64,000 bases of DNA from Bacteroidales bacterium (GTDB lineage: Bacteria; Bacteroidota; Bacteroidia; Bacteroidales; UBA7332): the NCBI GenBank assembly GCA_028687995.1, contig JAQTZA010000007.1:21099-85098 (forward strand), written 5' to 3'. The stretch's first letter is position 1, and every line of letters begins with the position of its first letter. Shown here piece by piece: positions 2,293-36,183 of the stretch. The translations under genes were made by a program, and so were the position numbers. The notes beneath the pieces are model-generated. The model was not told the origin of the DNA. It did no database searches and saw only the letters and a list, made by a program, of their open reading frames with translations.

Positions 2293-3795
2293 CTACACAA
2301 ACTGTTGCCAAATGCTTCCCTTTTGATAATTCTCGATGATAACAGTGCTCTGCTCGTGGTTGTAATCACATACCAAATTTGCGACTTCTTGACGAAGCAT
2401 AGAGATTGCTCCATTTATCATATCCTGACGGAATCCTTTTTCACCCAACACTATGACCATATTCATAGAGGCAATTCGGCTCATCATACGACCTAGTTCT
2501 GTTAATTTACGCTGCTGTTGTTGCAAATCAAGATCAAAACTCACCAAATCTTTGACAATATCAGCTGCACGGCTGGTTAATGAATGACCTTTCAAGAATG
2601 TGTAAAGATTCTTCTCGCCAGCAACCTTCATCAGTTTTAGAAGAGCCTCACCAATTTGAATATAAAGAATATCATTTGAACCTTCAAAAATCTGGAACGG
2701 ACGGCTATCGACAATACCACGACCTGCAACGTGGTTGAGCTTGTATGCTGCTGCACCAACCAACGTAAGAAGTGATTGAGCTGAATCTTGCATTAAATCG
2801 GTAGTCACCGTTTTGATGATATTGGCTTCTAAACCATAAGGTGTCAAATCATTTTTAATATCAGCAAGTTCCACACTTTTCAAACTAAATGCAGAACAAA
2901 TCGTGTAGTCAGCTTGCAAACGAGCCAAGCGTTGTTGCACCTGATCATAAGAATAGAGCGATTTGCCACCAACTGCACGTTGCTGTGCATGTGCAATTGC
3001 TTCATCTAGCATCCGTTGTATAAAACCAAGACCCATACCTGGAAATTGAAGACGACTGCGATGCAAAAGATCAAGCATCATCTGAACACCGGTTGTATGA
3101 GGAATCAATCGTTGTACTTTTGGGATTTTTACATCCAAAATATTTCTACCGTAAGGAATTTGATATAATCCCAAATTTTCAAAATATTCTTCTACTACTA
3201 TCTGTTGATTGTGTGCAGAATTATCACAAATAAAGAAATCGACATCACGCATCAAACCACCATGTGGTGCTTGTTTGCGTGCAGTCAATAACCAAAAATC
3301 GGCTTGTCCGGTTAATCCTGCCCAATGTTTTGTCCCTTTGAGATGAAACGAATTTTCTTCTTCTACAAAAGAAGTTTGCATATTGAGGGCGTCGCTACCA
3401 AAACCAGGTTCAGTAATCATAAGTCCGCCCATGTTTTTCATTTTCATGAAACGATCAAACACAAATGCCTTAGCTTCTGATTGACCATATTTGGCAACTG
3501 GTTGCAAAAAAAGCGCACTATTGATACCAAAAGTCAGCGAGAGAGCCAACGATTCGTACGATGCTGCTGACAACAGCGTTAAATTTTCTTGTACAATATT
3601 TCCGCGTCCACCAAATTCTGTAGGAATACTTACAGATAGAGGATTGCAGGCCATTATTTCGCTCAAAACGTTTTCCGGTAAGCCGCGATTAACACTCAGC
3701 TTATTAATGTCGTTTTCTTCGTGAAACAGCGATTTGAGAGTTGTCTTGAATTCACTGATAAATGAATCGAACGATTTTGTCTGGGGTACTTGCAT
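2293..3795 (-). CDS. Acyl-CoA dehydrogenase family protein
   Basis: MITEPGFGSDA, LKGTKHWAG, R-x-VGG and FQIFEGSNDI motifs of the ACAD fold. Confidence 0.88.
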   Translation of the reverse strand: MQVPQTKSFDSFISEFKTTLKSLFHEENDINKLSVNRGLPENVLSEIMACNPLSVSIPTEFGGRGNIVQENLTLLSAASYESLALSLTFGINSALFLQPVAKYGQSEAKAFVFDRFMKMKNMGGLMITEPGFGSDALNMQTSFVEEENSFHLKGTKHWAGLTGQADFWLLTARKQAPHGGLMRDVDFFICDNSAHNQQIVVEEYFENLGLYQIPYGRNILDVKIPKVQRLIPHTTGVQMMLDLLHRSRLQFPGMGLGFIQRMLDEAIAHAQQRAVGGKSLYSYDQVQQRLARLQADYTICSAFSLKSVELADIKNDLTPYGLEANIIKTVTTDLMQDSAQSLLTLVGAAAYKLNHVAGRGIVDSRPFQIFEGSNDILYIQIGEALLKLMKVAGEKNLYTFLKGHSLTSRAADIVKDLVSFDLDLQQQQRKLTELGRMMSRIASMNMVIVLGEKGFRQDMINGAISMLRQEVANLVCDYNHEQSTVIIENYQKGSIWQQFV

Positions 3796-4365: not shown

Positions 4366-4740
4366 TTAATGACTACAAGTATGACCATGCTCATGTGAAG
4401 AACAATTACTTCCACTATCTTTGACCTTGCCTAAGAGATATTGTAACACAAGGTCATTTACATCTCCATCACAATTTCTAATCACCGATACACCATGATC
4501 ATTGAGTTTATTAATAGCTCCATCGCCAATACCACCTGCCAACATCAGTTCAATTCCCATGGCTTGAAAAAGTTCTGAAACATTCGATTTACATCCACAC
4601 CCTTGTGGCGAGTCCATTCTTTCTTCGAAAATGATCTGATTTGTGCTCGAAATCTCGAAAATCTTATAGAAGGAGCAATGACCAAAATGAGCATCAACTT
4701 GATTATTTTCTTTTGTCGGAACTATAATCTTCATATTCAT
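4366..4740 (-). CDS. NifB/NifX (dinitrogenase FeMo-cofactor biosynthesis) family protein
   Basis: VDAHFGHCSFY, GCGCK and LAGGIGDGAINKL motifs, with a His/Cys-rich tail (CSSHEHGHTCSH). Confidence 0.85.
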   Translation of the reverse strand: MNMKIIVPTKENNQVDAHFGHCSFYKIFEISSTNQIIFEERMDSPQGCGCKSNVSELFQAMGIELMLAGGIGDGAINKLNDHGVSVIRNCDGDVNDLVLQYLLGKVKDSGSNCSSHEHGHTCSH

Positions 4741-4745
4741 ATTTT

Positions 4746-5798
4746 TTATTTACTCAGCTCAATCAATTTAGCAAAATACATAGCAAACGAACGATAGAGA
4801 AAGTGAGTCCATTTACCAAATGGAACAACGATTAACGCCCATTGTGCCAACACAATCAAATGAACGATAAAAATCCACAATTGGCTTTGGATCATATTCA
4901 TATCGATAGCTAATCTTACCAAAAAAGCAGTGAAACCCATCAATAGCAAACCAACTACAAAAAGCCAGTCAGAAGGTTGTGAGTGGGTACTAACCGCTTT
5001 CTGTTTTTTCAAGCGGCTATTCACAAAATCAGCTGTTATCACAAACACGGCGATACTCTCGATATAACCCAAAGCGATAACGAAGAGATTCTTCGAATCG
5101 AACCAATCCAGAAATACGGTGGTAAATAACAATGCCAGGTATCCGAAAACGAGGATCAAATGTTCGAACCATCGCACTTGATTATCGTCGCAGCCCAGCG
5201 AACGTTTTTGGGTAAACATGTGGACAAAGAAATCCCCCGAAGCTTTAAAGTAAGTAGCAAAAGCAACTTTTTTCTTCGGCTTGATAATTACAAAATACCA
5301 CATTCTGATGATGTTGGGCACCAACACAACGGCAAAGACCGAACCAATGGCAATCATTTCGAAATAGTGTCCATAATGCATCAGAGATTCCAATTCGAAG
5401 TTTTGCTGATATGCAAATCCAACAACGCCTAATGCCACGACTATCAATGAAATGAGGGTAACGGCAAGCGATTTATACAAAAGTCCAGAAAATCCGGTCC
5501 AATCGTATTTGGCTGTCAGCCAACGGCGAAGCGACATCATCAATTCTCCCGGATTTGCATCTTGCGGACAGTGCAACGAACATTCGCCACAATAGTAGCA
5601 AAGCCAGGGTTTGAGAGAAGCTTCAATCTCTTGATCTTGTCCCAAGGTGCTACATCTCACCATATTACGCGGGAATGAGTCTTCGGGTGTAGAGAGTGAG
5701 CAAACGGCGGTACACGTTCCGCAATTGTAACACGCATTGAAGTTTTCTGCTCCGTACTCTTTTAGTTTTTCTCCAAATTTAGGATTTATGTTTGCCAT
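4746..5798 (-). CDS. QmoC-like membrane protein: HdrC-type 2x[4Fe-4S] domain fused to an HdrE/cytochrome-b-like membrane domain
   Basis: CYNCGTCTAVC and CYYCGECSLHCP motifs plus NPGELMMSLRR, then about 6 hydrophobic helices with His residues (FEHLIL, IVHLIV, KWTHFLYR). Confidence 0.8.
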   Translation of the reverse strand: MANINPKFGEKLKEYGAENFNACYNCGTCTAVCSLSTPEDSFPRNMVRCSTLGQDQEIEASLKPWLCYYCGECSLHCPQDANPGELMMSLRRWLTAKYDWTGFSGLLYKSLAVTLISLIVVALGVVGFAYQQNFELESLMHYGHYFEMIAIGSVFAVVLVPNIIRMWYFVIIKPKKKVAFATYFKASGDFFVHMFTQKRSLGCDDNQVRWFEHLILVFGYLALLFTTVFLDWFDSKNLFVIALGYIESIAVFVITADFVNSRLKKQKAVSTHSQPSDWLFVVGLLLMGFTAFLVRLAIDMNMIQSQLWIFIVHLIVLAQWALIVVPFGKWTHFLYRSFAMYFAKLIELSK

Positions 5799-6076
5799 TA
5801 TTGTTTCAATTTATAGGTATAATACTCATCCATATCGTCGATCTCGCCGGTTTCTACCCAACCGAATTTTACCATCGACAACAGATTATACATCACTTCG
5901 TGGGTTGGCATCTCCAACTTTTGAGACAATTGAAGTATAGTCATATCACTCTCTTTCAAAGCATCAAGAATTCTTTTCTTAATTTGGGTGAACGCCTTTA
6001 AGTTCTCCTTTACTTGCTCCGATACGCCTTGTTTATCTCTAAGATATTTGGCCGTTTTTCCTTTTTCAACTTCCAT
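5798..6076 (-). CDS. Small winged-helix protein
   Basis: ILDALKESDMTILQLSQKLEMPTHEVMYNLLSMVKFGWV fits a wHTH pattern. The stop codon overlaps the ATG of the QmoC-like gene. Confidence 0.7.
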   Translation of the reverse strand: MEVEKGKTAKYLRDKQGVSEQVKENLKAFTQIKKRILDALKESDMTILQLSQKLEMPTHEVMYNLLSMVKFGWVETGEIDDMDEYYTYKLKQ

Positions 6077-6086
6077 TTTATGTCTG

Positions 6087-8027
6087 TTAAATCTGTTCTG
6101 TTAACGCATCTATCATATTCATAATCTCTTTGCTGGAGAAGGTAACCAAGTCAATCGCATCCGTTGGACAAACAGGTGTACACATGCCACAACCTTTGCA
6201 AACCGTGGTATTGACAACGGCTATTTTTCGATCACCATCGAGACCTTGTGTAATGGCATCGAACGGACAAGCTGTTGAACATTCATTACACCACGTACAT
6301 TTGACAGCGTCGATTTCTACCACAATCGGTTCGGTCTCCAATTCGCCTTTGCTGATGTATGAAAATGCTTTAGTAGCAGCGGAGAGAGAGGAGTTGACCG
6401 ATTCTGCTACGTTTTTCGGACTTTGGCAAGTACCGGCAATCGTGATACCGTCAATCGCTGTCTCTACCGGACGAAGTTTCATGTGAATCTCGTTCAGAAA
6501 ACGATCGCGACCTTTTGGCAATTTGAATAAAGTGCTTACTTTCTTATCCGATCTGGGCACCATACCGGTAACCAACACCACCAAATCAACCTCCACTTGC
6601 ATCTCTTTCGATTCTGTCAGAATATCATTCACCTTCACCCATGTTCTTCCATTTTCGGAATAAACTTCGGCGGGAGAATCGTCTGTTGCCTGAAGATAAA
6701 GATCACCTAATTTTAAGGATTCTGCATACAAAACCTCTTGTTTTCCGTACGTGCGAATGCCCCGATTGAAATGAAAATTGTGGATATTCTTGAACTTCTT
6801 TTTCGCAATAATGGCACTGTGAATGGTTGACGTGCAGCAATACCGTGAACAGTAGCTGTTGCCTTCGTCACCCTGACGACTACCTACGCAATAGATGTAG
6901 GCAATATTTTTTATCTCTTTGCCTTTGTAAATCAGTTTTGATTCACTGTTGTCTATCAGTTTTTTGAATTGTGGTAATGTAATCACACTTTCGTTTTCTG
7001 CATATCCAAACTCTCCATTTTCAGGAGTATAAGGATCGAAACCGGTTGCCATCAGCACCGAACCAACGTGCAACTCCACCATCTCTTTTTGCAAAGATAG
7101 ATCGATGTTTTTACTCACCTTCTCACAAGCACCACAGTGGGTACAAGCGGCATCATCGATGGTTGCCTGTTTGGGATATTGGCTTGCCGCAAATCCATAA
7201 ATAGCTTTGCGATTGGTAATGCCAAAGGTAAAAGGATCGGGCACAACCACCGGACAAACGTCCATCGCCTTTTGAAGCTCTTTCGCATCACAATCTTGAG
7301 AAATGTACCTCGGTGTCGTTTCAATTTTCAAACTGAAATCACCAATACTACCTGAATAAGAAACCACTTCAGAATTGGTGTAGATTTGCACGTTTTTGCG
7401 TGTTACCAACTGAGCATACAACGATGAAATCAGTTCATTTCCAGTCTGATTGGTCGTGAACATTTCGCCCCACTGACCTACTCTTCCACCAATGAATGGC
7501 TCTCTTTCAATCAACACGACCTGCGTATTTTTGTCTGACAAAGAGATAGCCGCTTTCAATCCGGCAACACCTCCACCAATAACAGCCACCGCATTGATTG
7601 CCATAATCTTATTTGGTGTGAGAGATTCTGCCAATCGCGCTTTTGCAATCGCAGCTTTCACGAGTAAAATGGTCTTCTCAGTCGCTCCTTTTTTATCATC
7701 GGAATGTGCCCACGATGCTTGCTCGCGAATGTTGGCATGAACGTAGTTATACTTATTCAAATCAGCTCTTTCGCTCACTTGGCGAAAGGTATTCAAATGC
7801 AGTTTTGGAGAACAAGACGCCACTACGATTCCAGATAAATTTTGTTCCTGAATGTCGAGTACCATCTCTTTCTGATTCGAATCGGAGCAGGCGAACTGAG
7901 TCGTTTTTGACATCAGCACACATCCATCATTTTCGATTGCTTCTCTCACTTTTTCCACGTCAACGTAGTCGGATATATTTCCACCACAATGACATATATA
8001 GACACCTAATCTTTTATCCATTTTCAA
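6087..8027 (-). CDS. hdrA: Heterodisulfide reductase subunit A-like flavoprotein (full-length)
   Basis: N-terminal YICHCG/FACS/ASCSP Cys domain, GGGVAG FAD motif, CVGSR...CSRYCC, and a C-terminal 2x[4Fe-4S] domain (CTWCNECSTACP, CKGCGMCTPVCP). Confidence 0.9.
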   Translation of the reverse strand: MKMDKRLGVYICHCGGNISDYVDVEKVREAIENDGCVLMSKTTQFACSDSNQKEMVLDIQEQNLSGIVVASCSPKLHLNTFRQVSERADLNKYNYVHANIREQASWAHSDDKKGATEKTILLVKAAIAKARLAESLTPNKIMAINAVAVIGGGVAGLKAAISLSDKNTQVVLIEREPFIGGRVGQWGEMFTTNQTGNELISSLYAQLVTRKNVQIYTNSEVVSYSGSIGDFSLKIETTPRYISQDCDAKELQKAMDVCPVVVPDPFTFGITNRKAIYGFAASQYPKQATIDDAACTHCGACEKVSKNIDLSLQKEMVELHVGSVLMATGFDPYTPENGEFGYAENESVITLPQFKKLIDNSESKLIYKGKEIKNIAYIYCVGSRQGDEGNSYCSRYCCTSTIHSAIIAKKKFKNIHNFHFNRGIRTYGKQEVLYAESLKLGDLYLQATDDSPAEVYSENGRTWVKVNDILTESKEMQVEVDLVVLVTGMVPRSDKKVSTLFKLPKGRDRFLNEIHMKLRPVETAIDGITIAGTCQSPKNVAESVNSSLSAATKAFSYISKGELETEPIVVEIDAVKCTWCNECSTACPFDAITQGLDGDRKIAVVNTTVCKGCGMCTPVCPTDAIDLVTFSSKEIMNMIDALTEQI

Positions 8028-8077
8028 TGTTTCGATTGTCGGTTTTTACTTTTATTTCTTTTACAATTCTGATTCGG

Positions 8078-9373
8078 TTACTTCAACAGATAACTAATGG
8101 CTTCTGATGAAGCAGATCCTGCCGAAAGAATAGCATCTGGAATATCCATCGGGCCTGTAGCAGTTCCTGCCACAAAAACGCCGTCAATACTGGTATGCGA
8201 AGGGTTTGCCAATCCATCGGTTTGATGAACAAAACGATACGGATCGAGCATCAATTGCTCCTCTGAGAAAAGTGAAGTGGTTCCTTCATTGGGTAAAACA
8301 CCCACCGAAAGAATCACCATATCGTGCTCCTCTTCTTTCACTATGCCTTCGTTGATATCCTCGTAGCGCAACATCAGATTCCCATTTTCGGTTTCTGAGA
8401 TTGAGCCAACTTTACCTTTCACAAAATTGACACCCATTCCCTTTGCCTGTTGGTAAAAATCTTCGAATCCTTTACCAAAAGCTCTGATATTGATGTAGTA
8501 GATAGTCACATCCGCCATGGGCAAAGCACCCATCAACAGTTGCGATTGCTTGATAGAATACATACAGCAAATCTGTGAACAGATCGGATTTCCGACCGAA
8601 GCATCACGCGATCCCACGCAAAGTACATACGCAATTTTATCAGGCACTTTTCCATCGCTGGGTCTCAAAATGGTATTGAATGGACGGGTCGGTGCAATTT
8701 CACGCTCCATTTGCAGAGAGGTGAGCACATTTTTATATTTTCCAAAACCATATCGGGGAATACGGTTGGCGTCGAACATCTCAAATCCGGTAGCCAAAAT
8801 CACCGTTTTGAATTGCATCTCTAAATGTTCTACCTCCTGAGTAAAATCGATACAATTTGTCGGACAAGCTCGTTCGCAGGCACCACACAACGTACAATTT
8901 TCAATATCGATGGCTGCTGCTTTCGGGCTGGCAATGCTAAAAGGAATATATGCGGCTTTACGGCCAATCAACCCAAACTGGTATTGGTCGCGCACACTTA
9001 CCGGACATGCTTTTTCGCACAATTGGCAAGCGGTACAATCTTCTACTCTCACGTATCGTGGTTGACGGGTGATATTCGCCACAAAATGATTATCGGCAAC
9101 CCGTCTGATATTGGAAGCCTCTGAACCGGTAAAGATGGTGATATTGGGATGACGCGAAATTTCAGATACTTTGGGCGTAGTGATACAGGCTGAGCAATCT
9201 AAAGTCGGGAAAACTTTACTCAACTTGATCATATTGCCGCCCACCGACAAATCTTTTTCTACCAACAATACCTTAAATCCGTTTACGGCTAAGTTTAGTG
9301 CGGCTTCGCCGCCTGCTATGCCTGCTCCGACGACTAATGCATCGTAAGAAACACTATTTTTCGTTGAACTCAT
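8078..9373 (-). CDS. hdrA: Heterodisulfide reductase subunit A-like flavoprotein (short, QmoA-sized)
   Basis: GAGIAG FAD motif, FPTLDCSAC, an inserted 2x[4Fe-4S] domain (CTACQLCEKACP, CTLCGACERACP) and CVGSR...CSQICCMYSIK. It lacks the N-terminal and C-terminal Fe-S domains. Confidence 0.9.
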   Translation of the reverse strand: MSSTKNSVSYDALVVGAGIAGGEAALNLAVNGFKVLLVEKDLSVGGNMIKLSKVFPTLDCSACITTPKVSEISRHPNITIFTGSEASNIRRVADNHFVANITRQPRYVRVEDCTACQLCEKACPVSVRDQYQFGLIGRKAAYIPFSIASPKAAAIDIENCTLCGACERACPTNCIDFTQEVEHLEMQFKTVILATGFEMFDANRIPRYGFGKYKNVLTSLQMEREIAPTRPFNTILRPSDGKVPDKIAYVLCVGSRDASVGNPICSQICCMYSIKQSQLLMGALPMADVTIYYINIRAFGKGFEDFYQQAKGMGVNFVKGKVGSISETENGNLMLRYEDINEGIVKEEEHDMVILSVGVLPNEGTTSLFSEEQLMLDPYRFVHQTDGLANPSHTSIDGVFVAGTATGPMDIPDAILSAGSASSEAISYLLK

Positions 9374-9783
9374 TTCTCTGTATTTGAACTCTTTAATAAG
9401 TATTCGTTGAAACTTTTGATCTGTTTCACAAACGATTCGCTACACACTGAACACATCGCTGCCATTCTCAATCTTGCGGGCTCGATCTGTTTTTCCTGCA
9501 TCAGAATATGAGTTTTGCCAACCAATGCACCTGTTTTCTCGGTACACGATTCACCAAACACACAATCGCTTCCATCCGCAGCAATAAATACACCATCAAA
9601 TCCTTTTTCGTAGGCATACATGATCCAACTGGGTTTAATTCCACTAGAGCAAGGAATTGTGATTGTATAAACGGTGGGTGGGTAATGCAACTTTAACAAA
9701 CCGGCCATATCGATTGCCGGATCTGAAATTTTCTCGGTCGAAAACACCAATATTTTCGCACTTTTTTTCGAAATATCTGCCAT
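9370..9783 (-). CDS. MvhD/FlpD-like iron-sulfur subunit (divergent)
   Basis: IDMAGLLKLHYPP...IPCSSGIKPSWIMYAYEKGFDGVFI...DC...IEPARLR follows the MvhD pattern. The stop overlaps the hdrA start by 4 bp. Confidence 0.8.
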   Translation of the reverse strand: MADISKKSAKILVFSTEKISDPAIDMAGLLKLHYPPTVYTITIPCSSGIKPSWIMYAYEKGFDGVFIAADGSDCVFGESCTEKTGALVGKTHILMQEKQIEPARLRMAAMCSVCSESFVKQIKSFNEYLLKSSNTEK

Positions 9784-9819
9784 GTCTTATGGGTTATGAG
9801 AGGCTTTTTATAAAAAAGA

Positions 9820-9898
9820 GTAAAGGGCAGCAAAGGAGTATTTTGTAAAACATCTAACCTTAATACAATAGACACAACCGATGAAATCTGCCCTTTAC
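9820..9898. repeat. Intra-operon inverted repeat between tusA and mvhD
   Basis: GTAAAGGGCAG (9820-9830) and CTGCCCTTTAC (9888-9898) form a perfect 11-bp inverted repeat. Confidence 0.75.
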
Positions 9899-9916
9899 AA
9901 TACTGTTTGACAGGAA

Positions 9917-10168
9917 TTATTTTTTCTTGAGATAAACTTTGAAATATCCGTTTACATCCACAAAACCCAAGTATTCGTGACCTTGTTTTCCGCACCATTT
10001 GGGGATATCCGATTTCGTTCCTTCGTCTGCTGATAATACTTCCATCACATCACCTGATTTGATGCTACCAATTGTTTTTTTTGCTTCCAAAAGCGGTCCG
10101 GGACAAGCTGTTCCTCTTGCATCTACTGATTTTGCTACCGCTACGGTCATTAATTCTTCTGTTGTCAT
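9917..10168 (-). CDS. tusA: TusA/SirA family sulfur-carrier protein
   Basis: VDARGTACPGPLLEAKK...EVLSADEGTKSDIPKWC. The start was moved to the ATG at 10168 because the longer ORF overlaps dsrE. Confidence 0.9.
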   Translation of the reverse strand: MTTEELMTVAVAKSVDARGTACPGPLLEAKKTIGSIKSGDVMEVLSADEGTKSDIPKWCGKQGHEYLGFVDVNGYFKVYLKKK

Positions 10169-10214
10169 AATTTGTCTTTTTAATTTGAATATAGAAATTC
10201 TGAATCTTGTTTTC

Positions 10215-10781
10215 TCAAATAAATAGTTGAATGCTGCTTTCGCCAGCATCTGCCACAAAAGTGCCCGCTCCTGCGTAGCGTAGGTTTGGATAATCAATGA
10301 TCTCCTCTTTCTTGAAGCCCATCAAATTCATCGACATCTCACACACGGTAATTTCGATGCCCAATTCGCCGGCCTCTTTAAACATCTGATCCAACGACAT
10401 GACACCTTGTTTTTTCATCAAGTGATTAATCATTTTAGGGCCAATACCGCACATATTCATATTGGATAACGCCAATTTCTCTTTACCTTTTGGCAGCATC
10501 ATACCAAACATTTTTGAAATGATGTCTTTACCGGGTGCTTTTTTCTTGCGATCCCGCAAAGCCGAAACCGACCAGAACGAGAAAAACAGTTTCACCTCTG
10601 TATCCATCGCAGCAGCAGCAATGGAGATAACCATGGCCGCCAGAATCTTATCCATATCACCCGAAACAATAGCCATTGATAATTGATCTTTGCGCGAATT
10701 TTCCAGTGTGCTTATCTTGCTTTTCAGCTCATCTATCTGAGCTTGAAGGTCTGCGATTTCGATATTTTTATTCGTTTCCAT
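10215..10781 (-). CDS. DsrE/DsrF/DrsH-like (DsrE2-type) sulfurtransferase
   Basis: SGDMDKILAAMVISIAAAAMDTEVKLFFSFWS and ITVCEMSMNLMG (conserved Cys), with an N-terminal coiled coil. Confidence 0.88.
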   Translation of the reverse strand: METNKNIEIADLQAQIDELKSKISTLENSRKDQLSMAIVSGDMDKILAAMVISIAAAAMDTEVKLFFSFWSVSALRDRKKKAPGKDIISKMFGMMLPKGKEKLALSNMNMCGIGPKMINHLMKKQGVMSLDQMFKEAGELGIEITVCEMSMNLMGFKKEEIIDYPNLRYAGAGTFVADAGESSIQLFI

Positions 10782-10820
10782 AATGAATTATACTAAAATT
10801 GGTTTGTTAAATTTGATAGG

Positions 10821-10828
10821 CAAAGGTA
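10821..10828 (-). promoter_or_regulatory. Bacteroidota -7 promoter element of the dsrE operon
   Basis: TACCTTTG on the minus strand matches TAnnTTTG, 40 nt upstream of the dsrE start. Confidence 0.6.
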
Positions 10829-10880
10829 TGGTCTTTCAAAAAAAGAGGACGAGTAAATATATGTGCATCTATTTATAAAT

Positions 10881-10902
10881 AAATGTGATATATATCATAT
10901 TA
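10881..10902. promoter_or_regulatory. Crp/Fnr-type binding site
   Basis: aaaTGTGAtatataTCATAtta matches TGTGA-N6-TCACA at 9 of 10 core positions and lies between the divergent genes. Confidence 0.6.
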
Positions 10903-10906
10903 TGAC

Positions 10907-10914
10907 TATCTTTG
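10907..10914 (+). promoter_or_regulatory. -7 promoter element of the Crp/Fnr gene (probably leaderless)
   Basis: TATCTTTG ends 4 nt before the ATG at 10919. Confidence 0.55.
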
Positions 10915-10918
10915 CAAG

Positions 10919-11596
10919 ATGAAATTTGAATGTATTAATTGTATATGTAAGTCCAAAGCGACAGAAACGCTAGGCCATTGTGATGTAGATAAGTTGACAG
11001 ACAACAAAGCTTTAGTCACATTTACGAAAGGTGAAAATATTATTCGTCAAGGTACATTTTCCACGAATATTGCTTTCCTAAGATCTGGAATTGCCAAAAT
11101 TCATTTAACAGGACCTTCTCATGAACAGATTGTAAGGATTATCAAAGCCCCTACTTATATGGGACTTCCTACTACTTTTGGAGAGAAAATAAATCAGTAT
11201 TCGGTTACAGCAATAGGTGATGTAGAGGTGTGTTATATCGACATTACCTTCTTTCGCAAGTTATTGAACGAGAAAGCAGACTTTTCGTACGAAATCATAT
11301 TAGAACTTTGTAGAAATGAATTAGAGACGCTTCGCCGATGTGCTAATCGGACACAAAAACAGCTACGAGGAAATTTAGCCGATGTATTATTGGATCTATC
11401 GGAAAACATCTTCGAATCTGAATCCTTCATTTTGCCTATGAATCAATCAGAATTGGCAGGATTAGTGGATACTAGTCGAGAGAGTATAAGCCGACTTCTA
11501 ACAGAGTTTTCTAAAGATGGAATTATTGAAATGAGCGGTAAACAGATTAAAATCACAAATGAAAAATCGCTGAAACTAATCAGCCAAAATGGATAA
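10919..11596 (+). CDS. Crp/Fnr family regulator with an N-terminal Cys cluster
   Basis: CINCICK...HC at the N-terminus, a cNMP-binding-type beta domain, and the HTH ELAGLVDTSRESISRLLTEF. Confidence 0.9.
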   Translation: MKFECINCICKSKATETLGHCDVDKLTDNKALVTFTKGENIIRQGTFSTNIAFLRSGIAKIHLTGPSHEQIVRIIKAPTYMGLPTTFGEKINQYSVTAIGDVEVCYIDITFFRKLLNEKADFSYEIILELCRNELETLRRCANRTQKQLRGNLADVLLDLSENIFESESFILPMNQSELAGLVDTSRESISRLLTEFSKDGIIEMSGKQIKITNEKSLKLISQNG

Positions 11597-18567: not shown

Positions 18568-19050
18568 ATGAACGAACGGATTGTGAGCGCAAAGATACAA
18601 GTTTATGAACTTGAAGAACTATCAGAAATCGAAAAAAACCTTATAAAATTGGCTCAAGATGCAACGAGCAGAGCGTATGCTCCATATTCTAAATTTCAAG
18701 TGGGTGCAGCTGCGCTGCTCGAAAATGGTGAAATAATAACGGGAACAAATCAAGAAAATGCAGCCTATCCATCGGGATTGTGTGCTGAACGTGTCGCACT
18801 CTTTTTCGCAAACTCACAATTCCCCAACGTTGGAGTAAAATTATTGGCAATAGCTGCTCAAACAGGTGGCAGCTTCACCAAAGAGTGCACTGCTCCGTGT
18901 GGTTCTTGCCGTCAAGTTATTCTTGAAACAGAAAATCGATTCGACACTCCTATTCGGATTTTAATGGCGGGTAGCGAAGTCATTTATGCTGTGAATAGCA
19001 TCACAGAACTATTGCCACTTCATTTCGACAAAAGTAGCTTGAACGGCTAA
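18568..19050 (+). CDS. cdd: Cytidine deaminase
   Basis: AYAPYSKFQVGAA, ENAAYPSGLCAER and PCGSCRQ. Confidence 0.95.
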   Translation: MNERIVSAKIQVYELEELSEIEKNLIKLAQDATSRAYAPYSKFQVGAAALLENGEIITGTNQENAAYPSGLCAERVALFFANSQFPNVGVKLLAIAAQTGGSFTKECTAPCGSCRQVILETENRFDTPIRILMAGSEVIYAVNSITELLPLHFDKSSLNG

Positions 19051-29172: not shown

Positions 29173-29583
29173 ATGAACTTATCTCACATCGAACATTTGG
29201 GCATTGCAGTAAAAAGCATCGAAGCATCACTACCTTACTACGAAAACGTTTTAGGATTGAAATGCTACAACATAGAAGTGGTAGCTGATCAAAAAGTAAA
29301 AACAGCATTTTTCAAAATTGGGCAAACAAAAATAGAGCTACTCGAGCCAACGAGCGAAGATAGCGCAGTCGCAAAATTCATCGAAAAAAGAGGCGAAGGA
29401 ATTCATCACATCGCTTTTGCTGTAGATAGCGTAGCAGACGCCTTAGCGGAAGTCGAAAGCAAAGGAGTACAGCTCATAGACAAAGCGCCTCGTGCTGGAG
29501 CCGAAGGTCTTAACATCGCATTCTTACATCCAAAAAGCACCTGTAGCGTATTGACTGAATTGTGCGAAGAGCCTAAAAATTAA
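29173..29583 (+). CDS. mce: Methylmalonyl-CoA epimerase
   Basis: IEHLGIAV, TKIELLEP, EGIHHIAF and FLHPKST...ELCE. Confidence 0.95.
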   Translation: MNLSHIEHLGIAVKSIEASLPYYENVLGLKCYNIEVVADQKVKTAFFKIGQTKIELLEPTSEDSAVAKFIEKRGEGIHHIAFAVDSVADALAEVESKGVQLIDKAPRAGAEGLNIAFLHPKSTCSVLTELCEEPKN

Positions 29584-29646
29584 ATTTAGGCAACCTTTTC
29601 AGGCAAAACGTTTTTCAATGACGAACACATTTAATAGATAATCAAA

Positions 29647-31200
29647 ATGAGTAACCAACTTGAAAAAGTAAAAGAGCTGATACAATTGCGAGATAAGGCA
29701 CGTATTGGCGGTGGCGAGAAACGGATAGAATCTCAACACAAAAAGGGCAAATACACTGCCCGCGAGAGAATTGCCATGTTACTCGACGAAGGAAGCTTCG
29801 AAGAGTTCGACATGTTTGTGACTCACCGATGCACCAATTTTGGCATCGACAAAGAGTCCTATTTAGGTGATGGCGTTGTCACTGGATATGGTACAATCAT
29901 GGGGCGATTAGTTTACATTTACGCTCAAGATTTCACCGTTTTCGGAGGTTCTTTATCTGAAACATTGGCAATGAAAGTTTGCAAAGTAATGGATCAAGCC
30001 ATGAAAATGGGTGCTCCAGTGATTGGCATCAATGATTCGGGTGGTGCACGCATTCAGGAAGGCGTAAATGCCTTGGCTGGTTATGCAGAAATTTTCCAAC
30101 GTAACATTCTGGCTTCAGGTGTTGTTCCTCAAATTTCAGGTATTTTCGGTCCGTGTGCAGGTGGAGCAGTTTATTCTCCAGCATTGACCGATTTCAATAT
30201 CATGACAAAAGGTACTAGCTATATGTTTTTGACCGGACCAAAAGTGGTGAAAACGGTAACTGGCGAAGATGTCACTCAAGAAGAGTTAGGTGGAGCAAGT
30301 GTGCATGCAAGTAAATCTGGCGTTGCTCATTTTGCCGTCGAAAATGAAGAAGAAGGCATCTCTTTGATTCGCAAACTGCTCTCCTACTTGCCGCAAAACA
30401 ATTTGGAAGAGGCTCCTGTCATTGCTTGTAACGACCCTATCAATCGCCTAGAGGATGGATTAAACGACATTATACCCGACAGTTCAAACAAGCCTTATGA
30501 CATGTATGAGGTGATTGGAGCGATTGTTGATAATGGTGAATTCCTAGAAGTACACAAAGATTATGCCCAAAATATCATTATCGGGTTTGCCCGTTTCAAT
30601 GGTCAATCAGTAGGTATGGTGGCTAATCAACCCAAATACTTAGCTGGAGTACTCGATATCAATTCATCGCGCAAAGCAGCTCGTTTTGTTCGTTTTTGCG
30701 ATGCATTTAATATTCCGTTGGTAACGCTGGTCGATGTTCCTGGATTTTTGCCAGGCACTGCTCAAGAATATGGCGGTGTAATTCTACATGGAGCTAAATT
30801 GCTCTACGCTTATGGAGAAGCTACTGTACCAAAAGTAACAGTCACACTTCGTAAATCGTATGGCGGAGCTTATTGTGTAATGAGTTCGAAACACCTACGT
30901 GGCGATATTAACTACGCTTGGCCAACAGCTGAAATTGCGGTCATGGGTCCATCGGGAGCTATCGAAGTGCTCTATTCGAAAGAGGTAGCTGCATCAGAAA
31001 ATCCAGCGGACATAACTGCACAAAAGGAACAAGAATACCGCGACGCTTTTGCAAATCCATACAACGCAGCCAAATATGGGTATATCGATGATGTCATCGA
31101 ACCACGAAACACACGTTTCCGTATCATTAGAGCTTTGCAACAGCTTCAAACTAAAAAGCTGACAAATCCGGCTAAGAAACACGACAACTTACCGCTATAA
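29647..31200 (+). CDS. mmdA: Methylmalonyl-CoA decarboxylase alpha subunit (acyl-CoA carboxyltransferase)
   Basis: [34 protein letters not shown] and KKHDNLPL; operon context. Confidence 0.92.
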
Positions 31201-31212
31201 ATTCAACATAAC

Positions 31213-32220
31213 ATGAAGAAAATTATGATGAAATATAAATTCGGAATTTTGTTGGTAGGCTTATTTCTTTTCGTTTTCAGTGCCACAGCTCAGCGTGCTA
31301 CACAACTGAGAATAAATGAAGTAATGGTCAAAAATATGAACAATTTTCAGGATGACTATGGGATACAGAGTCCTTGGATTGAAATTTTCAATTCTGCTTA
31401 CGCCACAGTCAATATTGGGGGATGTTATTTATCAAATGATGTTGCGAACCTAAAAAAGTATATGATTCCCAAAGGAGATGTACTTACAAAAATCAAGCCT
31501 CGACAACACACCCTATTTTGGGCAGACAATGAACCAACTAGGGGCACTTTCCATCTAAATTTCACGTTGGATACCGTAAAAGTAAATACACTGTATCTTG
31601 TAGATTCGAATGGAAAGGACATCATCGATAGCATTTTTGTAAAATGGAATGGAGATGCGAATACCAGTTTCGGTCGATGTGCCGATGGAAAAGATTTCGT
31701 CAAAAACGACTCGACTGGAGAATTGGAATCTGCGTGGAAAACACTCTCTGTCATTACGCCTAGTACCAATAATACCATTACAACAGACAAAGAGCATCAG
31801 GCAGTTTTACAAAAACAATTTCCAAATGGAATTGGCAATGCCATCATGTCAACAGGAGCTGCCAACGAAAAGTTTGAAACAAACGACCCATTGGGTGTAG
31901 GCATGAGTGCTACTGCCATGTTTGTAGTGTTTATAGGTCTAGTTATCCTATTTCTTATGTTTAAACTGATTGGGTACATTTCCATTCAATTAAAACAACG
32001 AAGAATGATGAAATCGGGAATAGATTCGACCAAAGCACAAGAACTGTTGGATAACGAAAGTGGAGAAATCTATGCGGCTATTGCAATGGCACTTTATGCT
32101 GTTGAAAACGAAGATCACGATTGGGAAGATACCGTTCTTACAATAAACAAAGTGGCGAAGACTTACTCTCCATGGAGCTCTAAGATTTATGGATTACGAG
32201 AAATGCCAAACAAAAATTAA
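31213..32220 (+). CDS. OadG/MmdD (delta) subunit fused to an N-terminal lamin-tail-like domain
   Basis: Signal peptide, LRINEVM...WIEIFN (LTD), TM AMFVVFIGLVILF, then EIYAAIAMAL...SPWSSK. Confidence 0.85.
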   Translation: MKKIMMKYKFGILLVGLFLFVFSATAQRATQLRINEVMVKNMNNFQDDYGIQSPWIEIFNSAYATVNIGGCYLSNDVANLKKYMIPKGDVLTKIKPRQHTLFWADNEPTRGTFHLNFTLDTVKVNTLYLVDSNGKDIIDSIFVKWNGDANTSFGRCADGKDFVKNDSTGELESAWKTLSVITPSTNNTITTDKEHQAVLQKQFPNGIGNAIMSTGAANEKFETNDPLGVGMSATAMFVVFIGLVILFLMFKLIGYISIQLKQRRMMKSGIDSTKAQELLDNESGEIYAAIAMALYAVENEDHDWEDTVLTINKVAKTYSPWSSKIYGLREMPNKN

Positions 32221-32238
32221 TTCTAATCTAATAAGAAG

Positions 32239-32673
32239 ATGAAAGAATTCAAATATACAATTAATGGTAATGTTTACAAAGTAAATGTAACCAATGTAGA
32301 ACAAGAATATGCCGAACTTGAAGTAAACGGCACAAAATACAAAGTTCAGATTGAGAAAGTACACAAAAAATCAATCAAACCACTGATCAAAGCTGCGGCT
32401 CAGGCACCCACTACTTCAACAGGTGCGCCGGTAGTGGCTAAACCAGTTGTTAAATCGTCTGCCTCAGCCATCAAATCACCTCTTCCGGGTGTCATTCTCG
32501 AGGTCGCAGTGAAGACCGGAGATACAGTAAAAAAAGGTCAAAAGCTCCTCATCCTCGAAGCAATGAAGATGGAAAACAGTATCAATGCTGATAAAGATGG
32601 AGTAGTTTCTGAAATCAAAGTCAACAAAGGTGATTCAATTCTTGAAGGAGCGGATCTATTAGTAATTGTATAA
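32239..32673 (+). CDS. mmdC: Biotin carboxyl carrier (gamma) subunit
   Basis: LILEAMKMEN biotinylation motif with an Ala/Pro-rich linker. Confidence 0.93.
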   Translation: MKEFKYTINGNVYKVNVTNVEQEYAELEVNGTKYKVQIEKVHKKSIKPLIKAAAQAPTTSTGAPVVAKPVVKSSASAIKSPLPGVILEVAVKTGDTVKKGQKLLILEAMKMENSINADKDGVVSEIKVNKGDSILEGADLLVIV

Positions 32674-32676
32674 ATT

Positions 32677-33918: not shown

Positions 33919-34605
33919 TTAGTCTAAATCTTCATCATGAACTATATCTGCAAATGCATGTCGATTCAAAATTCGTATTTCGTTGTCATTATAGGTCACT
34001 AATTTCTTTCGTTTGAGATCTTGCAAAACAGCAATCAAATTTTCTTTTGAATCTCCCAATAATTTCGCCATTTCATCGATCTTTGCGGCAAGAATACTCT
34101 CCTCTGCCTTTTTGTGAGTCAACAGCAATACCCACAAAGCGAATCGTTCATTCAGATCTCCAGCAGAAACAGATAACATTGTGTGGTAATATGTCTGCGA
34201 TCTAGCAGATAGAAAATTGAGATAATTGATCATAAAAATTGGTTCCTTACGAAGTAATTCCAGCAAATCTTCTTTAGCTATTTGCATAATTCCAACATCG
34301 GAATGAGCAATACACGTTGAGTTTGAAGATGTTTCAATTCCAAAAATATAATTTCCAAAAATTAGATTTGGAGAACCAAAAATCTCCTTTATCTCAAGGC
34401 TCAGAGCTTTATTGGGTGTGATTGTCAATAATTTTCCTGAAATCAAAAATTTCAAATGAGTAAAGTCATCTCCTTGAGACACAACCGTTTCTCCAGCTTT
34501 GTACTTCAAAAACTCTACACAATGTTTTTCAAGACAAGTCGTTAATTTCAACTTACTCACTCCTTGAAAAATAGGTGTTTGTAGTAATACGTCTAAAAAA
34601 CTCAT
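33919..34605 (-). CDS. Crp/Fnr family protein
   Basis: cNMP-binding-type domain (YKAGETVVSQGD...LISG) with a C-terminal wHTH-like region. Confidence 0.8.
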   Translation of the reverse strand: MSFLDVLLQTPIFQGVSKLKLTTCLEKHCVEFLKYKAGETVVSQGDDFTHLKFLISGKLLTITPNKALSLEIKEIFGSPNLIFGNYIFGIETSSNSTCIAHSDVGIMQIAKEDLLELLRKEPIFMINYLNFLSARSQTYYHTMLSVSAGDLNERFALWVLLLTHKKAEESILAAKIDEMAKLLGDSKENLIAVLQDLKRKKLVTYNDNEIRILNRHAFADIVHDEDLD

Positions 34606-36006: not shown

Positions 36007-36183
36007 TGCAAAAGATATAAAAAGAGGAGTAAATATATCAAAAAGATTACTCTATTGGGCTATATAAAAAGAAAAATAGTTTTTTATCTGACTTTTTTTA
36101 AGATTAAAAGTGATTTTCTCAAATTTATATATAATTTTGGGAAAAGCCACTATTTATTAAAACTGACTAAAAACAACAGATTA

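Follow-up and report, generated by a model that had tools for sequence, protein, structure and literature searches.

To our knowledge, the step of S-S chemistry is performed in every characterised Hdr by HdrB with its CCG domains. In Qmo, QmoA measures about 410 amino acids and QmoB about 750. QmoABC, a quinone-interacting membrane-bound oxidoreductase, is found in sulfate reducers and in some sulfur oxidisers, and type II Qmo is its nearest form to the locus presented here; type II occurs with or without Apr/Dsr, its function is unclear, and it has been described as nearer to typical HdrA than to bacterial QmoAB (Neukirchen et al. 2023, PMC10504309). The sulfur-oxidising sHdr system is fed by TusA/DsrE relays, the relay consisting of TusA/DsrE3/rhodanese (PMC11094781). 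In archaea, dsrEFH type II adjoins qmoAB, and clusters of DsrEFH type II with YeeE and TusA are now interpreted as oxidative (PMC13293266). Finally, flavoproteins with TusA and DsrE domains, such as Pcar_0429, have been proposed as cytoplasmic sulfur reductases in Pelobacter (PMC3543383).

Here we analyse an operon of a Bacteroidales bacterium (GCA_028687995.1), which lies in a stretch of 64,000 nt from contig JAQTZA010000007.1 (positions 21,099-85,098 of the forward strand), referred to below as the window. By domain content, the operon has a Qmo-type set, combined with a split MvhD, a probable winged-helix subunit and linkage to TusA/DsrE. We regard it as an even call whether its products form a membrane redox complex of the Qmo type that reduces cysteine-bound sulfur carried by TusA, using menaquinol together with a low-potential donor. 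We infer from sequence that the proteins assemble into one complex, that TusA-bound sulfur is the substrate, that the complex works reductively and that it may confurcate.

Organisation and conservation of the operon

The operon comprises eight genes on the minus strand (10781-4366; Table 1), running from the DsrE2-like gene through TusA, MvhD/FlpD, the short HdrA, the full-length HdrA, the winged-helix protein and QmoC to the NifX-like gene. In this order, the intergenic spacings are 49, 133, -4, 50, 10, -1 and 5 nt (negative values are overlaps), with the MvhD gene overlapping the short HdrA gene by 4 nt and the winged-helix stop overlapping the qmoC start. Since TusA orthologues measure 82-86 aa, the ATG at 10165 was taken as the start of this gene in preference to the TTG at 10297. 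Eight tight, co-oriented genes with a divergent Crp/Fnr regulator had been reported in a preliminary description of this DNA, and all nine genes were confirmed at the coordinates given there.

Table 1. Positions of genes and sequence elements in the window
Feature	Position	Strand	Evidence
DsrE2-like sulfur carrier, 188 aa	10215-10781	-	PF13686, 149 bits
TusA-family sulfur carrier, 82 aa	9917-10165	-	PF01206, 80 bits
MvhD/FlpD-like iron-sulfur protein, 137 aa	9370-9783	-	PF02662, 90 bits
Short HdrA, QmoA-like, 431 aa	8078-9373	-	5ODC_A residues 139-562, 370 bits
Full-length HdrA, QmoB-like without MvhD domain, 646 aa	6087-8027	-	5ODC_A residues 3-648, 432 bits
Winged-helix protein without conserved cysteines, 92 aa	5798-6076	-	AlphaFold model, pLDDT 86.6
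QmoC-like membrane anchor, 350 aa	4746-5798	-	NCBIfam qmoC, full-length, 146 bits
NifX/NifB-C-terminal-like protein, 124 aa	4366-4740	-	PF02579, 66 bits
Crp/Fnr-family regulator, 225 aa, divergent	10919-11596	+	PF00027 and PF13545
Palindromic CRP/FNR-type box, TGTGATATATATCATA	10884-10899		one mismatch to TGTGA-N6-TCACA
Bacteroidota-type -7 element (TAnnTTTG), TACCTTTG	10821-10828	-	read from sequence, 40 nt before dsrE2 ATG
Na+-translocating methylmalonyl-CoA decarboxylase set	29173-33837

Synteny was counted in Bacteroidota species genomes with enough flanking sequence (n=60), and recurrent neighbour families were taken from 80 Bacteroidota loci and from 23 related metagenomic loci with clustered neighbours. 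The cluster is real and conserved: its order recurs in 60/60 independent Bacteroidota species genomes, an arrangement for which chance cannot account, by far. TusA, MvhD and both HdrAs precede QmoC in all 60 loci, TusA lying upstream of MvhD in each of them and in 17 of 28 distant loci, and the DsrE2 and winged-helix genes are each present in 58/60. Distant relatives, with QmoC 33-42% identical, retain TusA-MvhD-HdrA-HdrA-wHTH-QmoC. QmoC homologues number more than 3000, and relatives are encoded in 453 species genomes. The operon is carried by Bacteroidales, Lentimicrobiaceae, Paludibacter and Prolixibacteraceae, groups that are not known to reduce sulfate. The carriers originate from places that are sulfidic or anoxic, namely landfill, digesters, and sulfidic springs and caves.

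The NifX-like gene, which the preliminary description had counted among the genes of the operon, is probably co-transcribed with the operon in the window, given the short gap to qmoC. It adjoins QmoC downstream in only 1/54 Bacteroidota loci and 0/22 distant loci, and therefore falls outside the conserved unit.

Genes for HdrB/CCG proteins, hydrogenase, Flx, AprAB, Sat and Dsr were not found in the 64-kb window, nor were any of them found among the recurrent neighbour families of the 80 Bacteroidota and 23 metagenomic loci, in agreement with the earlier claim that HdrB, hydrogenase, Flx and AprAB/Sat are missing at the operon. Stand-alone HdrC and LbpA are likewise absent from the operon and the window. 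The methylmalonyl-CoA decarboxylase set identifies the context of the window as fermentative and of the menaquinone type.

Redox modules and their relatives

The MvhD, short HdrA, long HdrA and QmoC proteins together correspond, by domain content, to the QmoABC set with MvhD split off. The preliminary description had held that the operon fits none of the known Hdr or Qmo classes, which is too strong in view of this set, although the absence of HdrB, hydrogenase and AprAB on which it drew stands for the window and the recurrent neighbours.

The short HdrA has an FAD domain, a complete inserted 2x[4Fe-4S] ferredoxin domain and the HdrA signature cluster motif; its GxGxxG motif and every cluster cysteine are 100% conserved across orthologues, and Cys60/Cys63 are the equivalents of Cys194/Cys197 in 5ODC HdrA. 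The full-length HdrA (positions 1-643 of NCBIfam HdrA2) has an N-terminal cluster domain, FAD, a partly degenerate insert, the signature cluster and a C-terminal 2x[4Fe-4S] domain; its cluster cysteines are conserved, but there are no counterparts of Cys194/197. Jointly, the two carry all HdrA domains (FAD and six [4Fe-4S] clusters). Against NCBIfam HdrA2 they score 473 and 553 bits, compared with 357 and 401 for the pair at locus L145, which is Qmo-like; at the sequence level, the operon's pair is the nearer of the two to methanogen HdrA. Both proteins vary among Bacteroidota. A long HdrA of ~575 aa without the inserted domain was seen in five translated loci (L009, L012, L025, L044 and L067), and their gene layout recurs in about 20/80 loci. 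The short HdrA is enlarged to about 920-970 aa in 8 loci (9 if L007, with 525 aa, is counted), and in L010, where the protein has 930 aa, Pfam assigns it an internal NAD(P)H module of the GltD/NfnB type (Fer4_20 + Pyr_redox_2). MvhD has the invariant cysteines Cys45, 74, 80, 111 and 114.

QmoC has an HdrC-like 2x[4Fe-4S] N-terminus (E = 1e-12 against HdrC 7BKB_C) followed by about six transmembrane helices. It contains eight cluster cysteines, and its conserved His193, His213, His313 and His332 are candidates for the ligation of two haems b. Its AF2 model (pLDDT 56.6) was too poor for use. The NCBIfam qmoC score lies under the equivalog cut-off of 300 bits, though the match is full-length.

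Foldseek places the model of the winged-helix protein with generic minimal winged helices (ArsR/SmtB, Z-alpha, DsrD). Structure 1WQ2 of DsrD, the winged-helix activator of DsrAB, appears only at rank 33 (target-based TM 0.72), domains of the ArsR/SmtB and Z-alpha types being equal or better, and a search with PF08679 (DsrD) gave no match. In 11 loci the long HdrA carries this protein as a C-terminal fusion (732-760 aa product), and it is therefore probably a subunit of the complex, structural or docking in function, and not a regulator. A homologue between HdrA and QmoC is also kept in distant relatives.

In a comparison with methanogen MvhAGD-HdrABC, a flavin-based electron-bifurcating heterodisulfide reductase (5ODC), the alignment of the long HdrA runs over the whole of HdrA, from the N-terminal domain through FAD and the signature cluster to the C-terminal ferredoxin domain. 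The short HdrA retains the inserted ferredoxin domain as well as Cys194/197, and there is an MvhD homologue and an HdrC-like N-terminus in QmoC. Unlike that complex, the operon has a membrane anchor and neither the HdrB catalytic subunit nor a hydrogenase; its HdrA pair is predicted to form an asymmetric heterodimer, where methanogen HdrA is a homodimer, and its proposed partner is a sulfur carrier instead of CoM-S-S-CoB. The resemblance to QmoABC consists in one short and one long HdrA-like flavoprotein (431 and 646 aa), an MvhD-type module, and a QmoC in which a 2x[4Fe-4S] part of HdrC type is linked to a membrane part containing conserved histidines. By its published description, type II Qmo is matched by the HdrA-like flavoprotein pair of the operon. 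In Qmo, however, the MvhD module forms the QmoB C-terminus, whereas here it is a separate gene ahead of the flavoproteins and the long HdrA ends past its ferredoxin domain; a fused long HdrA-MvhD form exists elsewhere, for example in L145 (746 aa). The operon further differs in its extra conserved winged-helix subunit, its own Crp/Fnr regulator, a QmoC below the equivalog cut-off, and its link to TusA/DsrE-family carriers in place of aprBA/sat. These differences bear on the idea that this is an ordinary QmoABC serving AprAB/Sat encoded elsewhere in the genome. The identical domain set and the JGI label 'QmoC' for homologues speak for it, but with apr/sat missing from the window and the recurrent neighbours, a QmoC at 146 instead of 300 bits, the split MvhD, the additional subunit, carrier groups that are not known as sulfate reducers and TusA/DsrE linkage everywhere, we regard it as extremely improbable.

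The operon also resembles sHdr, in which an HdrA-family flavoprotein is genetically coupled to TusA and DsrE-family carriers, but sHdr depends on lipoate-binding proteins together with HdrB1/B2 and HdrC1/C2, none of which the operon encodes (PMC11094781, PMC6067878), and has no QmoC-type anchor of this kind. The minimal sHdrA (6TJR, 349 aa) matches only the core of the operon's HdrAs (98-128 bits). The sHdr gene set (hdrC1B1AHC2B2 plus lipoate-binding genes) is not matched here: HdrB, stand-alone HdrC and LbpA are all missing from the operon and window.

Regulatory elements

The Crp/Fnr regulator is encoded divergently in 54/60 Bacteroidota loci, and Cys5, Cys8, Cys105, Cys141 and His62 are conserved in at least 96% of 55 orthologues. 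All of its NCBIfam matches fall under their cut-offs. The spacing of its cysteines is unlike that of the oxygen-sensing E. coli FNR, whose [4Fe-4S] cluster is bound by an N-terminal cysteine group and a central cysteine (Cys20, 23, 29 and 122). A TGA-N6-TCA box lies at most 60 nt from the crp start in 31/58 loci (0.03 expected per interval searched), and among 30 distinct sites the flanking TG/CA, outside the search pattern, are retained in 29-30. Wherever a locus yielded both this box and the -7 box, the former was 67-69 nt upstream of the latter. This TGTGA-N6-TCACA box is likely to be the binding site of the divergent Crp/Fnr, as predicted from its sequence and position.

The preliminary description had also given the operon its own TAnnTTTG promoter and a downstream terminator. 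The promoter is supported by the -7 element ahead of dsrE2, which stands at an equal relative position in many orthologous loci; there was no clear match to a -33 TTTG at canonical spacing from it. The terminator was not borne out: a search of the minus strand beyond 4366 gave no hairpin accompanied by a T-run, and the 176 nt downstream of the operon fold no better than shuffles (z = -0.89).

Sulfur carriers and the direction of electron flow

The DsrE2-like protein has a coiled-coil-like N-terminal extension and an invariant Cys147 (100% in 61 orthologues), and its closest PDB match is 3PNX, 'putative sulfurtransferase DsrE' (E = 4e-27). With the NCBIfam DsrE2 equivalog NF047629 it reaches 61 bits, far from the cut-off of 210; it thus lacks equivalog-level similarity to the Allochromatium-type DsrE2 and is a member of the wider PF13686 DrsE_2 family. 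TusA has the TusA fold with the Cys-Pro-x-Pro signature, here an invariant Cys21-Pro-Gly-Pro (Cys21 100% in 70 orthologues), and, at 44 bits where the NCBIfam cut-off is 78, is distinct from the TusA equivalog of E. coli. Sixteen Bacteroidota loci contain an additional DsrE gene (PF02635), and eight contain an alternative DsrE_2-like gene. In distant loci, QmoC is followed by one or two DsrE-like genes, a second TusA and YeeE/YedE (PF04143, 265 bits); YeeE occurs in 2/80 Bacteroidota loci and not in the window. The linkage of tusA/dsrE to the hdrA pair, on which the preliminary description had staked its proposal beforehand, therefore holds across Bacteroidota as well as in distant lineages with YeeE-TusA-DsrE after QmoC.

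It is conceivable that the complex has no sulfur substrate and is a ferredoxin/NAD(P)H:menaquinone oxidoreductase, for which all redox modules are present while an HdrB-type catalytic site for sulfur chemistry is absent, with TusA/DsrE2 as accessories for cofactor sulfur, cluster repair or redox regulation. We consider this improbable: carriers with invariant cysteines accompany the complex in 60/60 testable Bacteroidota loci, in distant lineages the set is enlarged by DsrE-like proteins and a sulfur transporter along with a second TusA, and linkage so tight and expanding is unusual for maturation factors.

In gene families, the YeeE, TusA and DsrE-like genes directly after QmoC in distant loci resemble YTD (YeeE-TusA-DsrEFH type II) clusters, while in the window TusA is accompanied only by the DsrE2-like protein of PF13686 and YeeE is missing. 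YeeE, with the TusA-like YeeD, imports thiosulfate, whose reduction potential is about -400 mV. The position of YeeE/YedE and a second TusA directly after QmoC would thus fit a complex that reductively cleaves a Cys-S-thiosulfonate on TusA to sulfite and sulfide or persulfide, much as Qmo/AprAB frees sulfite from APS, and so low a potential would explain the need for an HdrA module assisted by ferredoxin or NAD(P)H. With YeeE missing from the window and from 78/80 Bacteroidota loci, and no sulfite reductase linked, such a cytoplasmic, respiratory splitting of thiosulfate seems quite unlikely.

The same complex and partner might instead run in reverse, oxidising sulfide or TusA/DsrE2 sulfane sulfur towards menaquinone for SQR-like detoxification or supplementary energy in the cytoplasm of cells from sulfidic habitats. 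The couple HS-/persulfide lies at about -270 mV and menaquinone at -74 mV; this route would be downhill and need no second donor. The sulfidic or anoxic origin of the carriers fits it, TusA/DsrE relays are best known in sulfur oxidisers (PMC11094781), and YTD clusters are read as oxidative (PMC13293266). On the other hand, oxidation beyond persulfide needs HdrB/LbpA or DsrAB, neither of which is linked to the operon, a downhill route would have no use for an HdrA pair that is competent for bifurcation and has full ferredoxin domains or an NAD(P)H module, and the hosts resemble strict fermenters. We regard the oxidative direction as unlikely.

Reduction of TusA-carried sulfur is consistent with intact and conserved cofactor motifs throughout (FAD, HdrA clusters, MvhD, QmoC histidines, TusA Cys21, DsrE2 Cys147), with synteny in Bacteroidota and a link to sulfur genes that persists at 33-42% QmoC identity, with the fusion of the winged helix to the long HdrA and the GltD/NfnB NAD(P)H module inserted in the short one, with the absence of HdrB, Apr, Sat, Dsr and hydrogenase from the window and recurrent neighbours, with the conserved box at a fixed distance from the -7 box, and with the fermentative, menaquinone-type context. 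Against it, there is no obvious S-S catalytic site, since HdrB with its CCG domains is absent, oxidation of sulfide or persulfide towards menaquinone is thermodynamically easier than reduction, and a linked sulfur importer is usually absent in Bacteroidota. Precedents are the Pelobacter sulfur reductase (PMC3543383) and the TusA/DsrE relays to sHdr (PMC11094781). NADH persulfide/polysulfide reductases fused to rhodanese/TusA/DsrE follow the same flavoprotein-carrier logic, but proteins of the Pcar_0429 type are unrelated flavoproteins of the CoA-disulfide-reductase type, possess an active-site cysteine and are soluble and NADH-only, without a quinone link or iron-sulfur chain (PMC3543383, PMC7887784).

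In the proposed reductive mechanism, an HdrA heterodimer, free-standing MvhD, the small winged-helix subunit and QmoC would form the complex, whose cytoplasmic partner would be not APS reductase but cysteine-bound sulfur (persulfide, possibly thiosulfonate) on TusA, loaded via DsrE2. Sulfane sulfur would be taken up at DsrE2 Cys147 and transferred to TusA Cys21, and TusA would dock onto the HdrA/MvhD/winged-helix module. QmoC, with its iron-sulfur clusters and two haems b, would exchange electrons with the menaquinone pool, menaquinol electrons entering here; low-potential electrons would also enter, from ferredoxin via the HdrA ferredoxin domains or, in variants with the GltD/NfnB-like insertion, from NAD(P)H. 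The two streams would join at the HdrA flavins and release the bound sulfur as H2S, providing anaerobic propionate-type fermenters with an extra electron sink, and the cysteine-containing Crp/Fnr would set expression through the TGTGA-N6-TCACA box upstream of the promoter. More tentatively, and with considerable doubt, the operon may represent a new class of respiratory enzyme, an HdrB-independent reductase of TusA sulfane sulfur driven by menaquinol plus ferredoxin/NAD(P)H, in which HdrA flavin confurcation would allow sulfur reduction at low potential to draw on the quinone pool.

The pairing with TusA/DsrE in place of APS reductase suggests, as far as gene content indicates, a hidden electron route to or from protein-bound sulfur in organisms regarded as fermenters. 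If true, this would mean a hidden sulfur-cycling role for hundreds of 'purely fermentative' Bacteroidota, counted by the species genomes with a QmoC relative, and for relatives in other phyla, in habitats such as guts, digesters, landfills and sediments.

Organization and conservation of the operon

The eight co-oriented, closely spaced genes of the preliminary description were found on the minus strand (10781-4366), together with the TAnnTTTG-type promoter and the divergent Crp/Fnr regulator that it had reported; a search downstream of the operon found no terminator, which had also been claimed. Intergenic distances in gene order are 49, 133, -4, 50, 10, -1 and 5 nt. TusA likely starts at the ATG at 10165, since a longer, TTG-started reading frame would overlap dsrE2 and the orthologues are 82-86 aa long. 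The gap between tusA and mvhD (9784-9916) is unusually long at 133 nt; it measures about 10 nt in many orthologous loci and 90-140 nt in Paludibacter-like loci. An internal promoter or a regulatory RNA may lie within the gap. An Rfam search of the window returned no match. An ACAD-family gene on the same strand (2293-3795; 500 aa with a C-terminal extension), whose top NCBIfam match is 3-sulfinopropanoyl-CoA desulfinase (90 bits, cut-off 600), was dropped as an operon member, as it lies 570 nt downstream and its adjacency is not conserved in other genomes.

Features of the operon and its divergent regulator, with the matches on which each assignment rests
Feature	Position	Strand	Match or remark
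DsrE2-like	10215-10781	-	PF13686
TusA	9917-10165	-	PF01206
MvhD/FlpD-like	9370-9783	-	PF02662
Short HdrA, 431 aa	8078-9373	-	methanogen HdrA 5ODC_A, residues 139-562
Full-length HdrA, 646 aa	6087-8027	-	5ODC_A, residues 3-648
Winged-helix protein, 92 aa	5798-6076	-	structure model
QmoC-like anchor, 350 aa	4746-5798	-	NCBIfam qmoC, full length
NifX-like	4366-4740	-	PF02579
Crp/Fnr-family regulator	10919-11596		divergent from operon
Bacteroidota -7 element TACCTTTG	10821-10828		
CRP/FNR-type palindrome	10884-10899		one mismatch to TGTGA-N6-TCACA

This type of QmoC has more than 3000 homologues, with a relative encoded in 453 GTDB species genomes, and the best 80 of the QmoC loci are all from Bacteroidota (Lentimicrobiaceae, Paludibacter, Prolixibacteraceae, Rikenellaceae, Muribaculaceae-labelled MAGs and others). 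Among the 60 Bacteroidota loci with at least 6.3 kb 5' of QmoC, TusA, MvhD and both HdrAs occur in unchanged order in every one, DsrE2 and the winged-helix gene in 58 each; 54 have a divergent Crp/Fnr gene. An extra PF02635 DsrE gene precedes DsrE2 in 16 loci and another DsrE_2-like gene is found in eight; the cultured isolate Alistipes sp. ZOR0009 (GCA_000798815.1, contig JTLD01000014.1) carries the complete set with an additional DsrE. A NifX-like gene comes after QmoC in just 1 of 54 loci and is, like DUF134 and metallo-beta-lactamase-fold genes, an occasional neighbour, which argues that the conserved unit comprises seven genes plus the regulator rather than the eight genes first proposed.

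Elsewhere in the window are Bacteroidota markers (a T9SS plug protein, 406 bits, and BamI_Bacteroidota) and the genes of a Na+-translocating methylmalonyl-CoA decarboxylase, a set characteristic of fermenters that convert succinate to propionate, and the closest QmoC homologues (72-82% identical), where named, belong to Lentimicrobium and Bacteroidales MAGs. The description of the host as a fermentative Bacteroidales is therefore reasonable, if short of proof. The marker of succinate-to-propionate fermentation lies at 29173-33837 (plus strand), where a methylmalonyl-CoA epimerase-like gene accompanies the carboxyltransferase, biotin carrier and beta subunit of the Na+-translocating methylmalonyl-CoA/oxaloacetate decarboxylase; its gamma chain (31213-32220) bears an unusual lamin-tail domain. 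A glycogen metabolism cluster (36055-40776, plus strand) encodes a debranching enzyme (GDE_N/GDE_C), a GT4/GT5 glycogen-synthase-like protein and a GH57 enzyme. Further along, a single 1470-aa reading frame (55674-60086, plus strand) encodes both an RND inner-membrane permease (PF00873, residues 17-1044) and an outer-membrane-factor domain (PF02321), and is followed by genes for an HlyD-type adaptor (60179-61360) and a YtkA-like protein (62050-62886). A genuine fusion, the loss of a stop codon or a faulty assembly could each account for this; in Alistipes sp. ZOR0009 permease and outer-membrane factor are encoded separately. A sequencing-run search traced the sequence to three DNA runs, all from one landfill metagenome, and to no RNA run.

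Redox subunits, sulfur carriers and their relatives

Over its whole length the long HdrA matches the methanogen HdrA 5ODC_A (432 bits). It has Cys12/14/47/72 for the N-terminal cluster and Cys380/393/397/398 for the signature cluster, along with the FAD motif and the C-terminal 2x[4Fe-4S] domain; the inserted ferredoxin domain has partly degenerated, and equivalents of 5ODC_A Cys194/Cys197 are missing. The short HdrA consists of the FAD core, a complete inserted 2x[4Fe-4S] domain and the signature cluster, with Cys60/Cys63 as the counterparts of Cys194/197. Every module of a bifurcating HdrA dimer is found across the two proteins, which together look like an asymmetric heterodimer of the QmoA/QmoB kind, whereas the similarity of the minimal sHdrA (6TJR) to them is confined to the core. 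In MvhD five cysteines are invariant, as are Cys21 of TusA (in its CPGP motif) and Cys147 of DsrE2. QmoC matches the NCBIfam qmoC model, but its score of 146 bits lies below the cut-off of 300. Its N-terminus is HdrC-like (7BKB_C, E = 1e-12); some six hydrophobic helices come next, carrying His193, 213, 313 and 332, four residues that are kept even in relatives at 35% identity and would fit two haems b; the predicted structure, from a shallow alignment, has a pLDDT of 56.6.

The winged-helix protein has no conserved cysteine and a generic minimal winged-helix fold (Foldseek; model pLDDT 86.6). In 11 loci it forms the C-terminal end of a fused long HdrA of 732-760 aa, and in distant relatives a small homologous gene lies between HdrA and QmoC; we take it for a subunit or docking domain rather than a transcription factor. 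Homology to DsrD, an idea which arose from a weak Pfam Z-alpha match, is not claimed, with DsrD only at rank 33 in Foldseek. In eight of the 11 fusion loci (L010, L018, L020, L032, L050, L056, L078 and L079) the short HdrA reaches about 920-970 aa. That of L010 (5007-7799 of the locus) carries a GltD/NfnB-type module (Fer4_20 and Pyr_redox_2) inside the ferredoxin domain, an "HdrL-like" architecture, and NAD(P)H is a putative partner of the complex in lineages with such an insertion. Direct translation showed that the long HdrA lacks any inserted domain in five loci; selenocysteine was ruled out for the loci half-matched by tblastn, where the HdrAs are shorter and uninterrupted, with no in-frame TGA.

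Clustering at 50% reduces the Bacteroidota QmoC clade to one or two representatives, and the next relatives, 31-42% identical, include those of Desulfofundulus thermobenzoicus, a Thermoanaerobacteraceae MAG and Desulfoplanes. Two QmoC relatives, P0400 (764 aa, from a Desulfoplanes MAG) and P0256 (771 aa), are about twice the usual length and one is annotated as a 'heterodisulfide reductase-related iron-sulfur binding cluster', so that QmoC may be fused to an HdrB/HdrD-like CCG domain in other lineages. A metagenome scan with the distant QmoC sequences gave 28 loci with sufficient flank, 17 of which keep TusA-MvhD-HdrA-HdrA-(wHTH)-QmoC. Downstream of QmoC many distant loci have one or two genes of the DsrE-like type, then a second TusA and a YeeE/YedE sulfur transporter (PF04143, 265 bits), this YTD-like set lying directly beside the Qmo-like genes in L135, L127, L118, L140, L143, L147 and L158; the transporter suggests a thiosulfate-specific role as a rival reading. 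The linkage of tusA/dsrE to the hdrA pair, conserved in Bacteroidota, reaches distant loci. Other loci, such as L145, have the usual order of QmoA, QmoB with fused MvhD, and QmoC. Hence the link to sulfur carriers is old, and it belongs specifically to the form with split MvhD and wHTH. L145 itself serves only partially as a canonical qmoABC control (QmoC scores 216 against the cut-off of 300, and aprBA is not adjacent); the HdrAs of the operon score higher on HdrA models than its Qmo-like pair.

Genes for CCG-domain HdrB, AprAB, Sat, Dsr, Asr, Flx or hydrogenase were found neither within the 64-kb window nor among the recurrent neighbours of the 80 Bacteroidota loci or of 23 clustered metagenomic loci, in agreement with the initial reading. 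That reading also held that the operon fits none of the established Hdr and Qmo systems. It does fall short of the defining feature of HdrABC and of sHdr, namely HdrB, but its architecture is that of a QmoABC which departs from the type in three ways: MvhD is a separate protein, there is an extra subunit, and the partner differs. A canonical Qmo role is a very unlikely rival reading, given that neither Apr linkage nor a fused MvhD was found.

Regulation

Of 58 loci, 31 have a palindrome with the consensus TGTGA-N6-TCACA no more than 60 nt from the crp start (0.03 expected per search interval), and the outer TG/CA, which lie outside the search pattern, are present in 29-30 of 30 distinct sites. 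In every locus where both were found it lies 67-69 nt 5' of the TAnnTTTG box. The regulator has conserved Cys5, Cys8, Cys105, Cys141 and His62, a set that suggests a redox-, metal- or Fe-S-based signal, although the cysteine spacing differs from that of E. coli FNR.

Perfect boxes also lie at 18990-19005, within the 3' end of a cytidine deaminase gene, and at 41269-41284, 8 nt upstream of an RlpA-like gene (40800-41261) and just past gdh. With a second Crp/Fnr gene (33919-34605), these hint at a broader Crp-type regulon; sites with at most one mismatch number seven in the window against 2.7 expected, an only marginal excess. Many of the distant loci have a divergent LysR gene and often an upstream ArsR gene. 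The latter was rejected as a SqrR/BigR-type persulfide sensor, being a generic ArsR (best match NolR) with the BigR cysteine position unmatched.

Proposed function and significance

The best-supported reading is a Qmo-type complex that would use TusA-bound sulfur as its cytoplasmic partner. Judged from the motifs, electrons would pass from the menaquinone pool through the haems and clusters of QmoC to the HdrA pair and MvhD, with a second, low-potential input from ferredoxin, through the HdrA ferredoxin domains, or from NAD(P)H, through the inserted NfnB-like module. Menaquinol has a potential of -74 mV and persulfide one of about -270 mV; menaquinol and a low-potential donor acting together would make persulfide reduction feasible, in parallel with the confurcation idea proposed for Qmo/AprAB. 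TusA would be loaded by DsrE2, on the pattern of the known Rhd/DsrE/TusA relays (PMC11094781). The same complex might run oxidatively, but we favour reduction of sulfane sulfur to H2S because the hosts look like fermenters needing electron sinks. A flavoprotein carrying fused TusA and DsrE domains was earlier proposed as a cytoplasmic sulfur reductase (PMC3543383). The weakest point of the sulfur-reductase reading is that it has no HdrB-like catalytic site, for which Cys60/Cys63 in the short HdrA and the MvhD cluster are candidates only; a sulfur-independent Fd/NAD(P)H:menaquinone oxidoreductase is a rival, to be weighed against the persistent association with sulfur carriers.

HdrA modules are a model for flavin-based electron bifurcation and, to our knowledge, every characterised one ends in HdrB-type disulfide chemistry or, for Qmo, in APS reductase. 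The operon would represent a third, very widespread wiring of HdrA, in which the Qmo scaffold is coupled to a TusA/DsrE sulfur relay. A full-text literature search gave no description of this gene set, although reviews of HdrA modules or TusA may mention it, and we conclude that the TusA/DsrE-linked Qmo-like operon is real, widespread and uncharacterised. The analysis corrects the automated labels 'QmoC', 'CoB-CoM heterodisulfide reductase' and 'transcriptional regulator', which in metagenome studies can be mistaken for sulfate reduction or Hdr-type sulfur oxidation; the 'complete heterodisulfide reductase system' reported in several anaerobic isolates, including Lentimicrobiales (PMC11129491), may be an example of such a misreading. 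With Alistipes sp. ZOR0009 as a cultured carrier, the question is open to testing. If carrier-bound sulfur is reduced or oxidised, the Hdr/Qmo repertoire would gain a new terminal reaction, the 'type II Qmo without Apr/Dsr' genes flagged as unexplained in surveys would gain a role, and abundant anaerobic Bacteroidota, modelled as plain fermenters, would join the turnover of H2S and sulfane sulfur.
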